Source of the DNA: Treponemataceae bacterium
Lineage (GTDB): Bacteria; Spirochaetota; Spirochaetia; Treponematales; Rectinemataceae
Assembly (NCBI GenBank): GCA_963677895.2
Contig: CAXXGJ010000014.1
Coordinates: 1-14,152 of the forward strand
Length of the DNA: 14,152 bases
Direction of reading: 5' to 3'
A program made the position numbers. Shown here piece by piece: positions 1-9,000 of this stretch (position 1 is the stretch's first letter; each line of letters starts with the position of its first letter).

Positions 1-3000
1 TCATCCTGCTTCGACGCCAACGGCGCCGTCTTCGAGCCTCTGCTGGACGAGAACTGCGCGATCATAACCGACAGCCTCAATCATGCTTCCATCATCGACG
101 GCGTCAGGCTCTGCAAGGCCAAACGCATTGTTTTCAAGCATGCCGACATGCGCGATATCGAAGAGACCGATCCCGACACCGGCAAGGTGGCCAAGGGGCT
201 CGAGCGCTGCCTGAAAGAGGCGTCTGACGCGAGGATCCGCATGATCGCCACGGACGGCGTCTTCTCCATGGACGGCGACATCGCCGATCTCAAATCCATA
301 TGCGCGCTCGCCGAGAAATATGACGCTCTCGTCATGGTGGACGATTCCCACGCCACCGGATTCACCGGGGCGACGGGGCGCGGCACCTGGGAACATTGCG
401 GCGTGAAGGGAAGGGTGGACATCATCACCACCACCTTCGGCAAGGCGCTGGGCGGGGCTTCCGGCGGCGTGATCGCCGCCAGGAAGGAAATCGTCGAGTA
501 CATGAGGCAGAAGGCCCGGCCCTATCTATTCTCCAATACCGTGGCGCCCTCCATCGTGGGAGGCACGCTGAAGGCTCTCGAACTTCTCAGCGCGTCGACC
601 GCCCTGAGGGACAAGCTCGAGGCGAATACCAGGCGGTTCAGGGAGAAGATGACGGCGGCGGGCTTCGACATCAGACCCGGCGTCCATCCTATCTGCCCGG
701 TCATGCTGTACGACGAAAAACTGGCCCACGACATGGCCGATGCACTTCTTGAGGAAGGCATCTATGTCATCGGATTCTCCTTCCCCGTCGTGCCGAGGGG
801 CAAGGCTCGCATAAGGGTGCAGATTTCCGCCGCCCATGAACCGGGGCAAATCGACTTCGCCGTGGAGGCTTTTACCAAGGTTGGAAGAAGGCTGGGCGTG
901 ATCAAGGCATGAGGGAGCTTCTCCGCGCCTACTTTACGTTCCGGGAGGTTTTCGCTATATTTTCTACTCGAACCAACATTTCATCATTTCGCTAGACCGA
1001 GGTTAATCTAAATGCCTACGTATGAGTATGAATGCCGAGAGTGTAATCTTACTTTCGAAAAATTCCAGTCCATGTCCGAGGACCCTGTCAAGGTCTGCCC
1101 CAAGTGCGGCGGAGCCGTCAGGCGCCTGATCGGCGGCGGAACCGGCGTCATCTTCAAGGGCAGTGGTTTCTATATCACCGACTCCAAGAAAGCGGGCAGC
1201 GCGTCGACGAAGAGCGCCGCCAAGAGCTGCGAGACCTGTCCCGCGAGCGGCACCAAGAAGGAGAGCGCCTAGCGGCTATATGCCTTTTTCCAGCTGGGCT
1301 TTGGCCTGCTCCAGGGGCATGTCGAGCAGTTCGGGACTGGCGATGAGCCTGTAGAAGACCGAGGCCGAGCGCGCGAAGTAGAGACCGTCGGAAATCCTTT
1401 CGTCCACCGTTACCTTGAAATTTATGAAGTGGTGTTTCGTGCCGAAGGGGCCGTGGTGGCTGTCCTTCTGCGTGAGTTTGCCCATCACCACGAAGAAGCT
1501 AATGGTGCCCCATTCGTAAAGATGGTGGAAGGGCGCGTCGAGTCCGATGCTGCCCAAATTCGCGAAGAAGAGGGTGGCGTAGAAGGGGTCCACTTCGATA
1601 AGGCCTTTCGGGGCAAGATTGAAGCGGTCGAGAATCCTGTAGAGACCGATGAGGAGAGCCTTGGCGCCGGGAATGCTGTGGGCGAGCTTGGCTATCTTCT
1701 CGCCGTCCCCGCCTTCCCCTACTTCCCGCACATAGTTGATAGCCTTGTTTACCTTCAGCGTCACCGTATCGAGATCATCCTCGGGCTTGAAAACAACCTT
1801 CGCGCTTCCTTCCGGAGCTTCTTCCGTCATTTTCTGCTTCACGATGAATGACATGGTAATGTCGTTGTGCTGGTAGAGGGCCTTGCCGTGTATGAAACGG
1901 TTGAGTTCCGGCCTGATCGCCACGGTCCGCACCATCGCCGCCAGAACGAGGGAAAACAATGAATATCGATCCTGGCCCGAATTCTCGTTCTGATTCTTCA
2001 GTCCGGAGTTTCTCGCCCTCACGAAACGCAGGATATTCTCGACATCCACGTCCTTTTCATAGTACACGGCCGATTGATTGCGTCCGCGCATCATGTAGGG
2101 CATAAGCGCGTTGAGCGCATGGGCTTGTCGGACTTTTTTGCCGTCTGGTCTGTCGATGAAAAGCATGGAATGAACTATATAGTAGCGATACAATTAGGTA
2201 AAGTATCGACGGGGACCGCGGCCCCTGGCCGGAAATTTTGTTTTTTTCGCCCGCGCGGGACTTTTTTCGATTTTCCTGTGTTAAACTCAATGTATCCTTC
2301 TTTTCAGGAGGCACCACGTTTTGGATGATGCGCCGAAAAACGCAAGATCCTTAAGAGTACTGATCCTTTTTTCACGTTCTTCCAATACCGCCGTGGCCAT
2401 GGCCGACGATCGGCGCTTCGGCCGGTTCGCGTCGATCCTCGCCGACGGCGGATTCACCGCCAGGCTGGCATGCCCCGACTCCATCGCTATGCTTTCCGCC
2501 CTCATCGCCGAGTTCGGCCCCGACCTTGTTTTCAGCGCCCCCGACCATTTGCCCGAGTCCTCCCCGATGCCCGTCGGCGTCGCCTTTCCGGCGAACGCCA
2601 GGATAAACGTGCATGGCTGGCTGGAGGGAAGGGGAATCCCCTATGTGGGCTCCCCTCCCGATATCATAGAGCTCGCTCTTTCCAAGACGGCGCTCAAGGA
2701 AAAATGGGTAAAGGACGGAATATCCACGCCCGAGTTCCTCTCCTTGAACTCAGGTTCCGATCTTTCCGCCGTGGACAGGTCCTCGATTCCCCCCTTTCCC
2801 TGCATCGTGAAGCCGTCGGACGCCGGCAACTCCCGCGGCATCACGAAGGATTCGGTCGTTTTCGACATGAAAGCCTTGGCTTCCCTCGTCGCCAGCCTGG
2901 GCAAGGATTTCAGGCATATCCTCATCGAGCATTACCTGGGGCTCTACCCCGATTTCCGCGAAATCACCTGCGCATGCATAGGCAACGGCGAGGAGAGGCT

Positions 3001-6000: not shown

Positions 6001-9000
6001 GAGAAGATCGACGACGAGAGGCTGGCCGTGGCGAGAGCCCTGGGCATACGCACCGTCTCGGCCAGGGAATGGCTTTACCTTACCTACGACTCCCCGGGCG
6101 ACACCCTCTGCGCGGCGATAAAGGCCACGACGGGCTATTTCGGGATAAAGGCGCCGCCGACGATCAACCATCGCTATATATGGGAAGACGTACCCATGAG
6201 CCTCGTGCCGATGTCCTCCATAGGAGCCATGCTCGGGATACCGACACCTACCATAGACATGATCATCACGCTCGCCGAGCTGATGAACGGCAGCGATTAC
6301 AGAGCCGTAGGAAGAACGGTCGAAACGCTGGGCATCAAGGGAATGAGCGTCGAGCAGATTCACCGACTCGTCACCGAAGGCGACGAGTGAGGAGGAGCCT
6401 ATGAATTTTACCGATATTTTGGATTCCATCGCCTCATCGTTCAATTCGCTTCCGCCGATAGCCGGGGCGTTTCTGACCTTTCTTCTGGGCTGGCTCGTCG
6501 CCCGTTTCGCCCGCTTCTTCACGCCGAAACTGATGACGCTTCTGCGATTCGACCGTTTCAGCGAAAAGACGGGGATTAACGGTTTCCTGAAAAAGGGGAA
6601 TGTCCACTATACGCCGTCGAAGCTGTTGGGGATGCTCGTCTACTGGTTTTTGATGATCCTGACGCTTTCGAACACGGTGGCGAGGCTCGACAAAGGGGCG
6701 GCATCATCCATCCAGGTATGGATAAGCTCGGCCCTGCCGATACTGATAGCCACGGGCATTATCGTCGTGATAGGCATTGTCGTCGTCACCTTCCTGTCGA
6801 ATTTTTTCATCACCATCGCCAGGAACGGCGCCGTACACAATCCTGTTCTGATAGGCAACGCGATCAAATATATCGGATTCATCGTCGTGGCGACCTTGGC
6901 CCTGGACCAGCTCGGCTTCGGCCAGACCATCGTGAGCACCATCTTCATACTCCTGTTCGCCGCGATAGCCCTTGGGCTGGCCCTTGCCTTCGGCCTCGGC
7001 TGCAAGGACATGGCGAGGAAACTGATGGAAGACTTCATCAGGAATATCCAGGAGAAGGAGAGAATCAAGCATGGCACGGATCTGGAAGGCTAGGCTCTCG
7101 CTTCGGCGACGAGCGCCTCGGCCAGCAAGGTCATGGGATCGATGAGAGGGACCTTGAGGAATTCCTGCGAAAGGACGAGAGGCACTTCGGTGCAGCCGGC
7201 CACGATGGCGTCGGCGCCCGCCAGCACGAGCCTTTCGGCCGCCTGGACGAGAAGGGAGCGCGGATAATCTCCCCTGTTCCCCGCCTTTATGCCGTTTTTC
7301 CCGTAAATGGCTTCCATGACGAGATTGGCCTGGGCTTCGTCATCGGGCCATAGGATCGAATACTCGGCAAGGGAAGTCTCGTAGAGTCTGGCGGCCTTCG
7401 TTCCCGCCGTCGCGAGGATCCCCAGCCTGCGCGCCTGGGGGTAATTTGCATGCATCGCGGCGGCCATGGTCTCGAGGGCCGAGATGAATCGGAGGCCTGA
7501 GAGTTCCTTAAGTCGCGGAAGGAAGTTGTGCGCCGTCATGCAGGTTATGCCGATGATGTCGGCTCCGGCCGCCTCGAGCCTTTTCAGCGAGGCGAGCATG
7601 GCGGGGACGGGATCGGGCCCCTTGCCCAGTATGTTCGCCGTTCTGTCGGGAATGGAAGGATCGCATTCGATGACGATATGCGCGTGATCCTGATCCCTCG
7701 CGGCCTTGTCGAAAGAGAGCAGTTTCACGAAAAAGTCCGATGTCGCCTCGGGGCCCATGCCGCCGAGAATCCCAATGGTTTTCATCATTCCTTCCTTTAT
7801 TTTGCTCGATGAAAATGTTCTCAAATCCGCGCGTTCCCAAAGTGTACAGCATTCGCGGGTTCATGGGCAATAAATAATATTTGCGTTATTCGGCTTTTCA
7901 GTTTACCATTCTTTTTGGCGCTCATCCCTATTTCGCCGTCGGGCGAGCGCCTGTCCGAAATAACCAAGGAGGATTTTCATGGCAGAAACGAAAGAAAAGA
8001 AGGGGCTTTTTGGCTGGTATTTCAAGACCAACCTTCTCATCCGGATTCTCATCGGCCTCGTGCTGGGCGCCATCGTGGGTATCATCCTGGGATTCTTCCC
8101 CGATTCGGTAAAAGTCTTCGTTGACAATTCCAAATTCTTCGGCGATCTCTTCATCAGGCTGTTGAAGATGATGATCGTGCCGGTTATTCTTTTCTCCCTC
8201 ATCGCGGGCGCCGCGAGCATCGATCCCGGCCGTCTGGGAAGAATCGGCGTCAAGATCATGGTGTACTACCTCTTCACGAGCGCCTTCGCCGTCGTCGTGG
8301 GACTTATCTTCGCCAATATCTTCCAGCCTGGCGTCGGCTTCAATGTCGTGGGGACCGCGGCCGTGCAAGGTAAAGCGGCGGCTGTGCCTACGGTTTCGCA
8401 GATCATACTCAACATCGTTCCGACCAATCCCATCGACTCCCTCGCCAAGGGCGACGTCTTGCCGATCATCTTCTTCGCCGTGGTCTTCGGCATCTCGCTC
8501 TCCTACATCAAGGATTCGGCCAATAAATCCCTGGCCAAGAGCGGCCAGATGCTTCTCGACGTGATCAACGCCGGAGCCGAGACCATCTACAAGGTCGTGA
8601 CCGGCATCATGCAGTATGCCCCGATCGGCGTATTCGTCCTTATCGCGCAGGTCTTTGCCCAGCAGGGCGCCAAGGCTATAGGCCCCCTCCTGGTCGTGAC
8701 CTTGGCCGTCTATCTCGGCCTGATCGTTCAGGTCGTCGTCGTCTACGGCGGCTTCCTGGCTGTATTCAAGCTGGGGCTGTGGAAATTCCTTAAAGGCGCC
8801 AACGAGGCGATGCTCACGGCCTTCGTGACCCGTTCCTCCAACGCCACGCTCCCCGTCACCATGCGCTGCGCAGAGGAAAATCTCGGCATTCCGCGCAAGA
8901 TATGCTCCTTCACGCTGCCCCTGGGCGCCACGATCAATATGGACGGCACGGCTATCTACCTCGGCGTATGCGCGATATTTATCGCGAACGCCATCGGCAG

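Follow-up and report, generated by a model that had tools for sequence, protein, structure and literature searches.

The question raised by this locus is what kind of enzyme is encoded by the gene for P0001, a protein of 629 residues that matches no Pfam or NCBIfam family and seems to fuse a cobalamin-binding domain to a barrel like that of the glutamate mutase subunit GlmE, and in which kind of pathway it acts. A first-pass annotation had proposed a new family of B12-dependent mutases that, together with an opine dehydrogenase, ferments an acidic amino acid or an opine-like compound. Herein, "the window" refers to the whole stretch of 14,152 nucleotides that was analyzed.

Architecture of the operon

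The gene of P0001, a putative adenosylcobalamin (AdoCbl) mutase, occupies positions 3360–5249 on the forward strand, which also carries the other three genes of the operon. It is preceded by a gene for an ATP-grasp carboxylate–amine ligase (2321–3355, 344 residues), which begins with a TTG start codon 8 nt downstream of an AGGAGG motif. It is followed by an opine dehydrogenase of the CENDH type (5239–6390, 383 residues; PF02317, 164 bits), whose ATG overlaps the 3′ end of the P0001 gene; the two genes are translationally coupled. The fourth gene (6401–7093) encodes a small polytopic membrane protein of 230 residues with a "mechanosensitive channel conserved TM helix" domain (PF05552, 38.6 bits versus a cut-off of 22). 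It stays under the cut-off of the "msc" model NF033912 (55 versus 100 bits) and finds no match in a sequence search of the PDB. A homologue lies 3′ of the opine dehydrogenase in 21 of the 89 loci compared, where, as in all counts over loci or genomes given below, related genomes are not independent observations.

The operon leader and promoter region (2194–2320, forward strand) contains two terminator-like hairpins with T-runs (2219–2231 and 2245–2260), a conserved block TTGTGTTAAACTC...TATA, and the AGGAGG motif. In six related loci, the hairpin with its T-run is kept in position and not in sequence; the leader matches no Rfam family, even at E ≤ 10.

Two further genes provide context only. 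An Asp/Glu-type amino acid racemase (7090–7824, reverse strand; PF01177, 119.5 bits) is convergent with the operon and scores over the cut-off of the "cysteate racemase CuyB" model NF052483 (216 versus 190 bits). A glutamate/aspartate or dicarboxylate symporter of the SDF family follows on the forward strand (7979–9289; PF00375, 410 bits); it remains under the cut-off of the GltP model (269 versus 638 bits). The neighbors named in the first-pass annotation, meaning the ATP-grasp enzyme (PF07478), the opine dehydrogenase (PF02317), the racemase, and the GltP-type symporter, are thus all present.

Sequence, domains, and distribution of the P0001 family

P0001 has no Pfam or NCBIfam match at E ≤ 0.01, reaches PF02310 only at E 0.11 (residues 18–46), and finds nothing better than E 0.9 in the PDB by sequence, all as first described; by itself it stays under every Pfam B12 and MutE threshold. 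The N-terminal DxHxxG motif is confirmed as DVHTLG at residues 18 to 23, D18, H20, T21, and G23 being conserved in 90% or more of the 22 family sequences aligned. The motif belongs to a B12-binding Rossmann domain of about residues 9 to 135 (3384–3764, forward strand), which shows its strand/helix pattern in the AF2 model and is further marked by S76 and A114-G115; no helical cap precedes it. Residues 201 to 621, approximately (3960–5222, forward strand), form a (β/α)8 barrel and a C-terminal cap, as assigned from DSSP strands, conservation, and superposition on GlmE. All eight strands of the barrel bear conserved polar residues at their C-terminal ends: R219/H221, D250/S253, R298/Y300, W321/H322, E362/N364, Q401/N405, Q439/R441, and H480, the latter followed by S485 and E486.

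In the representative library, 420 matches at E ≤ 1e-3 were again obtained, about 14 of them full length. The impression of a small or rare family does not survive a wider search, in which 2881 clusters (90% identity, E ≤ 1e-3) were found among 8000 candidates scored, with source names spanning about eight phyla. Homologues are indeed frequent in Rectinemataceae, as had been claimed, and the counts are larger than stated: they occur in 44 of 60 other genomes searched. No published description of the family was found in the literature searched, and the data support an undescribed family of proteins with a fused cobalamin domain and GlmE-like barrel.

Fold and homology

The predicted fold, a Rossmann-like B12 domain joined to a GlmE-like TIM barrel, was reproduced with a mean pLDDT of 91.0 and a pTM of 0.90. 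Foldseek again places GlmE (1cb7_B) first, at E 1.1e-11 with a TM score (target) of 0.63 and 14% identity, followed by lysine and ornithine aminomutases (9e-10 to 1.5e-8) and methylmalonyl-CoA mutase (about 4e-8). By structural superposition, GlmE is likewise the top match (Z 27.3, 379 aligned residues, rmsd 3.4), and lysine 5,6-aminomutase (26.1), ornithine aminomutase (24.0), and methylmalonyl-CoA mutase (19.6) also score highly, gaps of less than one Z unit counting as ties. The best matches are AdoCbl isomerase barrels throughout, and unrelated TIM barrels reach Z values of about 16 to 17.

The high scores of the two aminomutase barrels would also suit a PLP- and AdoCbl-dependent aminomutase, in which migration of an amino group yields a β- or ω-amino acid for the dehydrogenase and the ligase; β-amino acids are known osmolytes. 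Lysine and ornithine aminomutases carry their PLP lysine in the Rossmann domain, but residues 1 to 190 of the family alignment contain no lysine column conserved in at least 90% of the sequences. Moreover, the Pfam matches of distant homologues are to MutE (PF06368) and to no aminomutase family, and profile comparison ties the family to GlmE, which makes an aminomutase very unlikely.

This profile homology reaches a probability of 91.7% (hhalign, E 7.8e-7, 353 columns) for a profile that includes distant homologues. It rests on these intermediate sequences because the family-only profile is weak, with a probability of just 2.4%. The extended profile also matches solved B12 domains, namely 4jgi (E 1.4e-7), the "coenzyme B12-dependent mutase" 2yxb (E 4.9e-6), and MetH (E 4.4e-5). 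Of 30 homologues at greater distance, 20 contain PF02310 and five PF06368, two of the latter above the gathering score; three are fused to a MutL/GlmL domain (PF13941) and one to an ATP-grasp domain. P0001 and all four fused homologues share R205, R219, H221, Q261, R298, Y300, D333, R335, E362, H367, Q401, K418, R441, H480, and E486.

The matches to MetH and to corrinoid proteins of methyltransferase systems, together with pterin-binding and DHPS-like barrels in the fold list (Z about 16), leave some room for a non-radical corrinoid protein, either a methyl-transfer enzyme or a cobalamin sensor or store that uses the barrel otherwise. In addition, K326 of GlmE, presumably an adenosyl-ribose contact, is not kept and aligns with V482. 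However, methyltransferase-type barrels fall 3 to 11 Z units behind those of AdoCbl isomerases. Methyl-transfer corrinoid proteins typically possess a helical cap domain, for which DxHxxG at residue 18 leaves no space, and the Pfam cap family is absent. Since the reactivase domain MutL/GlmL is fused in homologues and GlmE E330 has its counterpart in E486, a non-radical function can be given little credence.

Active site and substrate

According to the profile alignment, E486 corresponds to GlmE E330 and D333 to GlmE E171. The three arginines with which GlmE binds its substrate glutamate, R66, R100, and R149, give way to H221, Q261, and Y300, and P0001 lacks the Y177/Y181 loop; for these reasons, the chemistry of P0001 could differ from that of GlmE. 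P0001 is probably a one-piece enzyme of the B12-dependent radical type, akin to glutamate mutase with a rebuilt substrate pocket; the new type of reaction suggested in the first-pass annotation is a hypothesis. A fused canonical glutamate mutase, converting L-glutamate to 3-methylaspartate for use by the ligase and the opine dehydrogenase, would agree with GlmE as top structural match, the profile homology, D333 at the position of E171, and the nearby glutamate/aspartate-type symporter. The exchanged arginines and the deleted loop speak against it, as do the absence of a PF06368 match in P0001 and in every reading frame of the genome and the lack of a methylaspartase-type neighbor in the window. 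Because the pocket is unlike that of glutamate mutase, free L-glutamate is probably not the substrate, and the canonical reaction is highly improbable.

The opine dehydrogenase partner

The opine dehydrogenase is homologous over its full length to N-(1-D-carboxyethyl)-L-norvaline dehydrogenase (1bg6, E 8.5e-70). Its His (AVFHP), Arg (HRY), and Asp (WED) are aligned and conserved with respect to both 1bg6 and octopine dehydrogenase (3c7a). It shares the operon of the mutase homologue in 79 of 89 loci, lying on the same strand within 500 nt in 75 of them, and nine of the ten exceptions are cut by contig ends. Among 60 genomes of Rectinemataceae, 38 have both genes, 15 neither, six the mutase only, and one the dehydrogenase only. 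In other operon types, the dehydrogenase bears an N-terminal PTS EIIA(Ntr)-like domain. A functional tie between the P0001 family and the opine dehydrogenase is supported. With this linkage, the fold, the profile homology to GlmE, and the MutL/GlmL fusions, the proposed new family of B12 mutases stands as an undescribed family of, most likely, AdoCbl isomerases linked to a dehydrogenase.

Concerning the cofactor, the first-pass annotation had noted that the cluster lacks an adenosyltransferase; a gene for one of the PduO type (165 bits) exists elsewhere in the genome, as does CobS. No MutL-type reactivase was found in the genome (92.8% complete). Neither was CbiC, so the corrinoid must be salvaged.

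Ligase partners and genomic contexts

The ATP-grasp protein is, as judged from its sequence, D-Ala-D-Ala-ligase-like but no true Ddl: it matches PF07478 (48.7 bits versus a cut-off of 24) and Ddl in the PDB (8evy, E 1.4e-13), whereas the best NCBIfam Ddl model gives 64.7 bits versus a cut-off of 245.65. In 18 of 89 loci, homologues of it adjoin the mutase. A third partner recurs in 23 of the 34 loci with long flanks, namely an enzyme that forms amides at the expense of ATP and is either of the ATP-grasp type or asparagine-synthetase-like; the latter type lacks Cys1 in all eight partners examined. Three queries found no ligase in the other 11 loci. In Bacteroidota, the copies are embedded in gene clusters for the biosynthesis of polysaccharides or nonulosonic acids, and the ATP-grasp partners match PylC-like_N (PF21360); clusters of this kind surround the copies in L003–L006, L008, and L082. 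Upstream of relatives, scans revealed an nhaA-I (Na+/Li+) riboswitch at 10 of 26 loci and a c-di-AMP riboswitch at two of 10; Na+/H+ exchangers adjoin relatives in four loci and a full MscS in one. This stress-related evidence comes from operon types other than that of the window, and riboswitch searches gave no match for the window, for 11 loci with its operon type, or for nine genome loci including the close relative L001.

Because of the ligase partners, glycan clusters, riboswitches, and exchangers, the contexts appear anabolic or stress-related and favor biosynthesis of an amino-acid-derived compound over fermentation. The fermentative role originally proposed is therefore not upheld. It would have the mutase rearrange an opine or an acidic amino acid taken up from outside (for instance Asp, Glu, or a D-isomer) and the dehydrogenase oxidize or cleave the product for energy, in parallel to lysine or ornithine aminomutase and the dehydrogenase that follows. 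In the window and in close relatives, both symporter and racemase are found no more than 3 kb away, known AdoCbl amino acid mutases are fermentative, and CENDH-type enzymes are reversible; a catabolic direction is possible because the Arthrobacter enzyme is reportedly induced by growth on opine-type compounds. However, neither gene is retained beyond close relatives (L001, L011–L015, L018, and L020 for the racemase), ATP-consuming ligases stand beside the pair in most loci with long flanks, the remaining contexts are glycan clusters or Na+/c-di-AMP riboswitches, and the window encodes no follow-up enzyme of the methylaspartase, thiolase, or CoA-transferase type. We regard a catabolic route as unlikely.

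Proposed mechanism

In the preferred reading, to which we give about an even chance as a whole, P0001 is a single-chain AdoCbl radical isomerase that is paired with the opine dehydrogenase in a module building an amino acid derivative. H20 of the N-terminal Rossmann domain would bind cobalamin in the base-off/His-on state, and this domain would cap the C-terminal mouth of the GlmE-type barrel. Homolysis of the Co–C bond would then create a 5′-deoxyadenosyl radical that abstracts hydrogen from a carboxylate-rich, amine-bearing substrate, presumably held by D333 and the repositioned arginines R205, R219, R298, R335, and R441, and a 1,2-rearrangement would follow. P0001 may form an obligate pair with the adjoining dehydrogenase, for which an N-(carboxyalkyl) amino acid would be either product or substrate. 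A third enzyme, ATP-dependent and amide-forming, would usually join them; in the window, this is the ATP-grasp protein. The module is most likely synthetic rather than degradative and leads to an unusual acidic amino acid derivative that is branched or N-carboxyalkylated. In the Rectinemataceae-type operon, the small MscS-like membrane protein would be co-transcribed. In relatives, the same core may serve surface-glycan decoration or stand under Na+/c-di-AMP control, as expected of an osmoadaptive solute. Since mutase and opine dehydrogenase nearly always adjoin, a widespread and so far uncharacterized pathway is hinted at.

Comparison with known systems

The nearest known system is glutamate (methylaspartate) mutase GlmS/GlmE, or MutS/MutE, of Clostridium cochlearium (EC 5.4.99.1; PDB 1cb7, 1ccw, 1i9c, and 6h9e). 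Common to both are a capless cobalamin domain whose DxHxxG motif lies right at the N terminus, the (β/α)8 barrel with its C-terminal cap, acidic residues at the positions of E171 and E330, and a MutL/GlmL reactivase, here fused to distant homologues of P0001. Unlike glutamate mutase with its separate S and E subunits, P0001 is a single polypeptide (14–16% identity). It has new arginines, R219 and R298, each two positions ahead of H221 and Y300 on their respective strands, as well as R335, and an inserted conserved segment W321-H322...W327-W328; its partner is an opine dehydrogenase, whereas that of glutamate mutase is methylaspartase.

Lysine 5,6-aminomutase KamDE (1xrs and 8t0v) and ornithine 4,5-aminomutase OraSE (3kow and 3kp1) resemble P0001 in their barrels (Z 24–26). 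In pathways that use an AdoCbl isomerase on amino acids, an NAD(P) dehydrogenase acts next. P0001 differs in having no conserved lysine for PLP in its Rossmann domain and in its domain order, with the B12 domain at the N terminus, and a sequence-level link is absent. The dehydrogenase resembles CENDH of Arthrobacter sp. 1C (1bg6) over its full length including the catalytic His, Arg, and Asp, but its type is coupled to a B12 protein and carries the EIIA(Ntr)-like N terminus in other operon types.

The pyrrolysine enzymes PylB, PylC, and PylD offer a functional analogy only. PylB is a radical-SAM enzyme without B12 and PylD comes from another family of dehydrogenases; the homology considered between the two sets is the ATP-grasp domain match (PF21360). 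In that pathway, the skeleton of an amino acid is first rearranged by a radical mutase in the manner of glutamate mutase; a Ddl/ATP-grasp ligase and an NAD-dependent C–N dehydrogenase then act, a three-enzyme logic like that of the module of mutase, ligase, and opine dehydrogenase described here.

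Operon of the mutase gene

The putative mutase P0001 is encoded in an operon of four co-directional, tightly packed genes (2321–7093, + strand). It opens with the gene of an ATP-grasp ligase (2321–3355, +), whose TTG start lies 8 nt after AGGAGG, followed by that of P0001 (3360–5249, +; 629 aa), of an opine dehydrogenase (5239–6390, +), whose ATG overlaps the end of the mutase gene, and of a 230-aa membrane protein with a mechanosensitive-channel TM-helix domain (6401–7093, +). A racemase gene (7090–7824, −) is convergent with the operon, and a Glu/Asp symporter of the GltP type is encoded at 7979–9289 (+). 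The first-pass annotation had named the ATP-grasp, opine dehydrogenase, racemase, and symporter genes as neighbors, and all four are borne out by Pfam or NCBIfam matches.

The ligase matches only PF07478, the ATP-grasp C-domain family, in Pfam and stays below the NCBIfam Ddl cut-offs (best TIGR01205, 64.7 bits versus 245.65). The opine dehydrogenase matches PF02317, the Octopine_DH C-terminal domain, with 164 bits (cut-off 30) and is a full-length homologue of the Arthrobacter N-(1-D-carboxyethyl)-L-norvaline dehydrogenase (CENDH, 1bg6; E 8.5e-70). It has the features of the opine dehydrogenase family, including a Rossmann N-domain and aligned and conserved positions for the catalytic His, Arg, and Asp, for which we take H212, R324, and D329 of octopine dehydrogenase as the reference. 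For the membrane protein, the PDB search gave no match, and no methylaspartase family is among the Pfam matches in the window. Complex prediction for residues 1–621 of the mutase and 21–383 of the dehydrogenase returned a score of 0.00, which speaks neither for nor against an interaction.

The racemase and the symporter are kept beside the operon among close relatives only and may hint at an amino-acid precursor in the lineage of the window. The racemase scores 216 bits against the "cysteate racemase CuyB" equivalog NF052483 (cut-off 190) and matches general Asp/Glu racemase models too. Divergent from the operon, at 1276–2193 (−), lies the gene of a 305-aa protein that weakly matches the 2-oxoacid dehydrogenase acyltransferase catalytic domain (27.6 bits, residues 39–119); its position is kept in close relatives. 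Two terminator-like hairpins with T-runs are found on the coding strand at 2219–2260, 5′ of a conserved promoter-like block of the operon, where there is no upstream gene on the + strand to terminate. A hairpin with T-run occupies this position, with a differing sequence, in six related loci. A reverse-oriented copy of 1860–4856 forms the start of another contig of the same genome (C28:1–2997, locus L100). Over 2997 bases, it shows 21 mismatches (99.3% identity), leaves mutase residues 1–499 unchanged, and probably reflects strain heterogeneity or assembly redundancy (contamination of the metagenome-assembled genome, 5.46%) rather than a true duplication.

Domain architecture and fold of P0001

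By sequence, P0001 stands apart from described families. Pfam and NCBIfam models give no match at E ≤ 0.01, and the cobalamin-binding family PF02310 reaches only E 0.11 over residues 18–46, the same figure as in the first-pass annotation. Searches of PDB sequences yield nothing better than E 0.9 for P0001 and no match for a profile built from the family only. Within an alignment of 22 family members (A1), 90% or more of the sequences retain D18, H20, T21, and G23 of the DxHxxG motif. The base-off/His-on fingerprint DxHxxG…SxL…GG can be read in P0001 as D18-V-H20-T-L-G23, S76, and A114-G115, and in a profile search, it aligns with that of 4jgi, 2yxb, and MetH. Two full-length members, P0131 and P0136, lack the cobalamin-ligand histidine and many barrel residues, including H221, Y300, R335, and E486; because of these losses, they are likely inactive or repurposed paralogues.

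The AlphaFold2 model calculated on A1 has a mean pLDDT of 91.0 and a pTM of 0.90. It consists of a Rossmann domain (residues ~9–135), a linker, an eight-stranded barrel, and a C-terminal cap. The closest structure in Foldseek is the glutamate mutase E subunit GlmE (1cb7_B, E 1.1e-11), which upholds the earlier proposal of a Rossmann-like B12 domain fused to a GlmE-like barrel and predicted with high confidence. VIA-align superposes 379 residues of the model on 1cb7_B with an rmsd of 3.4 and a Z-score of 27.3, followed by lysine 5,6-aminomutase (26.1), ornithine 4,5-aminomutase (24.0), and methylmalonyl-CoA mutase (19.6), with the unrelated barrels IspG, ThiC, and DHPS at about 16–17. Fold comparison and profile alignment agree in assigning P0001 a (β/α)8 barrel of the GlmE type.

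The aminomutases KamDE and OraSE come close to GlmE in this ranking, and in these enzymes, the PLP-binding lysine sits in the Rossmann domain. Of the A1 columns conserved at 90% or above, none within residues 1–190 of P0001 is a lysine, which speaks against a KamE/OraE-type PLP aminomutase. A class B (cobalamin-dependent) radical SAM enzyme was rejected as well, since P0001 has no CxxxCxxC motif and no radical-SAM match in Pfam. Light-sensor and methyltransferase readings were likewise set aside, as their motifs or domains are missing from it.

Sequence bridge to glutamate mutase

A search of representative sequences with P0001 returned 420 matches at E ≤ 1e-3, and 30 of the more distant ones were scanned with Pfam. 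Herein, 20 of the 30 carry an N-terminal PF02310 domain, and five match the MutE family PF06368, two of them above the gathering score. Three (P0200, P0222, and P0223) are fused to the MutL/GlmL reactivase domain PF13941, and one (P0167) to a C-terminal ATP-grasp domain. A profile of the family together with its distant homologues (A2) reaches the solved B12 domains of 4jgi (1.4e-7), of 2yxb, a "coenzyme B12-dependent mutase" (4.9e-6), and of MetH (4.4e-5); within the PDB, these are found by this wider profile only, not by P0001 or the family-only profile.

For comparison with GlmE itself, five true GlmE sequences from Spirochaetota genomes were aligned (A3). One of the five can be aligned to 1cb7_B with no gap and therefore shares its numbering. 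In hhalign, A2 and A3 are related with a probability of 91.7% (E 7.8e-7) over 353 columns, pairing residues 209–606 of P0001 with 57–440 of GlmE. The family-only alignment A1 reaches a probability of merely 2.4% against GlmE, and hence the link rests on intermediate sequences. P0001 itself has no PF06368 match even at E ≤ 10, and none is found anywhere in its genome.

Active site

Residues of P0001 and GlmE were mapped on each other through the profile alignment of A2 with A3, not by structural superposition. We take R66, R100, and R149 of GlmE to be the substrate-binding "arginine claw", Y177 and Y181 to be further substrate-site residues, E171 to be the amine contact and base, and E330 to contact the adenosyl ribose. 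R66, R100, R149, Y177, Y181, and the other mapped reference residues are invariant in the five GlmE sequences of A3. In P0001, the arginines of the claw align with H221, Q261, and Y300, respectively, the Y177/Y181 loop falls in a gap, and K326 aligns with V482. E171 aligns with D333 and E330 with E486, both invariant. Judged by these aligned residues, P0001 has a pocket different from the one in glutamate mutase. New conserved arginines, R219 and R298, precede H221 and Y300 by two residues on the same strands; R335 is another, and R205 and R441 are likewise conserved in the family. Each of the eight predicted strands bears conserved polar residues at its C-terminal end. Such an arginine-rich, rebuilt pocket, with an aspartate aligned to E171, suggests that the substrate is a polycarboxylate with an amine group but not free glutamate.

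The homologues fused to the reactivase or to ATP-grasp retain R205, R219, H221, Q261, R298, Y300, D333, R335, E362, H367, Q401, K418, R441, and E486 of P0001. The catalytic machinery would therefore be common with proteins that bear a B12-mutase reactivase domain.

Gene linkage and operon types

Linkage was assessed in 89 loci, nine from genomes and 80 from metagenomes, with neighbors counted by tblastn. An opine dehydrogenase gene lies on the same strand within 500 nt of the mutase gene in 75 of them and in the same operon in four more, either with another gene in between (L026, L063, and L066) or across a 564-nt gap (L064). Nine of the ten remaining loci are cut by a contig end. The tenth, L009, has full flanks and no dehydrogenase; its mutase homologue is N-terminally truncated. 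Among 60 genomes of the Rectinemataceae, which are kin and not independent, 38 have both genes, 15 neither, six only the mutase, and one only the dehydrogenase. The six mutase-only genomes carry divergent copies (40–52% identity), and the single dehydrogenase gene without a mutase lies at a contig end.

A ligase, either ATP-grasp or asparagine-synthetase-like (AsnS-like), stands beside the pair in 23 of the 34 loci with at least 2.6 kb on both sides, a count from three queries at E < 1e-6 that may miss divergent ligases. In all eight AsnS-like partners examined, the N-terminal Cys is replaced by Ser or Ala.

Three operon types can be distinguished. Type A, that of the window, has the order [ATP-grasp]–mutase–opine dehydrogenase–membrane protein; a homologue of this membrane protein, with the mechanosensitive-channel TM-helix domain, lies 3′ of the dehydrogenase in 21 of the 89 loci. 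Type B consists of a small membrane protein, a fusion of EIIA(Ntr) with the opine dehydrogenase, the mutase, and an AsnS-like enzyme. Type C, from Bacteroidota, consists of an ATP-grasp enzyme with a PylC-like N domain, the opine dehydrogenase, and the mutase, and sits inside polysaccharide clusters with Bac_transf, GT2, GT4, EpsG, and DegT genes (L003–L006 and L008). A type-C–like cassette in L082 belongs to a nonulosonic-acid cluster with NeuB, CTP_transf_3, and DegT.

Two mutase–opine dehydrogenase–membrane protein–AsnS-like operons lie ~10.5 kb apart on one metagenome contig (L021 and L022, ranges 11265–27076 and 21839–37650). In three type-A loci, a protein-L-isoaspartate O-methyltransferase gene is divergent beside the ATP-grasp gene (L023, 5150–5800; L028, 3182–3832; L049, 5221–5892), with amidohydrolase-family genes farther upstream in L023 and L028; a link of these three loci to isoaspartyl or β-aspartyl chemistry is conceivable.

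Regulation in relatives

Upstream of nine of 16 type-B operons, Rfam finds nhaA-I RNAs (RF03057) on the coding strand. Among ten further loci, RF03057 occurs upstream in one, and in two, the c-di-AMP riboswitch RF00379 immediately precedes the opine dehydrogenase gene. According to PMC9646797, nhaA-I RNAs sense Li+, and rare variants, termed Na+-II, respond to Na+ and are located ahead of genes of unknown function in Deltaproteobacteria; in the supplement, 171 of the genes that follow nhaA-I RNAs are listed as "hypothetical". The subject there is the riboswitch alone (PMC9646797). Among the 95 of 170 listed neighbor ORFs covered by a Pfam scan, the operon has a Na+/H+ exchanger gene next to it in L021, L025, L050, and L083 and a full MscS gene in L046.

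At gathering scores, the window has no Rfam match, and in the leader (2150–2400), a threshold of E ≤ 10 gives only a chance lncRNA match. Nor does Rfam find a riboswitch in 11 type-A loci or in the nine genome loci. The riboswitch and exchanger context of the relatives does not apply directly to the window.

Behind the nhaA-I aptamer of L029 (4469–4890) and of seven more type-B loci stands a short hairpin, the 3′ arm of which overlaps a GGAG Shine-Dalgarno sequence. The ATG directly after this hairpin opens the first type-B gene, encoding a small hydrophobic protein (113 aa in L029). TPP riboswitches on the operon strand, ~1.7–2 kb upstream of the opine dehydrogenase in L070 (3771–3876) and L081 (3990–4095), probably belong to an intervening gene.

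Distribution and cofactor supply

In a collection clustered at 90% identity, at least 2881 clusters match at E ≤ 1e-3 among the 8000 candidates scored, and their source names span about eight phyla. Matches at 56–57% identity are named by source as Deltaproteobacteria, Verrucomicrobia, Eisenbacteria, and Phycisphaerae; genome loci add Dehalococcoidales, Bacteroidales/Muribaculaceae, and Firmicutes. Of the 60 other Rectinemataceae genomes that were searched, 44 encode a homologue. The mutase–dehydrogenase pair occurs in anaerobic sediments, groundwater, digesters, and gut Bacteroidota. Full-text searches of the openly accessible literature gave no description of the family or the pair.

The genome (92.8% complete) encodes a PduO-type adenosyltransferase (165 bits), CobS, and four other proteins with B12-binding domains; searches of it found neither CbiC nor MutL (PF13941). 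The organism probably relies on corrinoid salvage and carries out the adenosylation itself.

Proposed function and comparison with known systems

Because of its architecture, its fold, the profile homology, the reactivase fusions, and the conserved residue aligned with E330, P0001 is best read as an adenosylcobalamin isomerase. Within the glutamate-mutase lineage, it would stand out by its new architecture, pocket, and obligatory partner. For the family as a whole, we infer B12 binding, radical chemistry, substrate, and pathway direction.

The opine-dehydrogenase partner suggests two options: the mutase may use or form an N-(carboxyalkyl) amino acid, or it may provide the amino or keto acid that the dehydrogenase condenses. 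The first-pass annotation had placed both enzymes in a fermentation route, which is not borne out: the ATP-dependent amide-forming partners, the glycan clusters, and the ion- or osmotic-stress riboswitches of relatives point to biosynthesis over fermentation.

A tentative reading, more doubtful than probable as a whole, joins these observations. The mutase and the opine dehydrogenase would form the core of an undescribed, phylum-spanning B12 pathway, in which an N-(carboxyalkyl) amino-dicarboxylate, being the opine itself or its precursor, undergoes a radical 1,2-rearrangement. The ATP-grasp or Cys-less AsnS-like enzyme would then amidate or cyclise the rearranged product, yielding either a new neutralised solute, made under the control of Na+/c-di-AMP, or an acyl group that decorates surface sugars. 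To our knowledge, the coenzyme-B12 isomerase reactions described so far number about a dozen, and rearrangement of an opine or its precursor, if true, would be a substrate class and a reaction without known precedent among B12 enzymes.

The family is large, conserved, and structurally confident and combines a rebuilt, glutamate-mutase–related active site with a tie to an opine dehydrogenase and, frequently, to an enzyme that forms amides. Its reaction, once solved, would extend B12 chemistry by a reaction or at least by a new substrate, and would explain the mutase–dehydrogenase pair. It could reveal a new osmoprotectant or glycan substituent and would assign a function to some of the unknown-function genes behind nhaA-I-type (Na+/Li+) riboswitches.

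Glutamate mutase is made of S and E subunits on separate chains, and genes of MutL/GlmL and of methylaspartase lie close to its own; P0001 is a fused single chain. The module as a whole resembles in its logic the synthesis of pyrrolysine, in which a radical mutase (PylB), an ATP-grasp ligase (PylC), and a C–N dehydrogenase (PylD) act together; this likeness is an analogy and implies no membership in that pathway.
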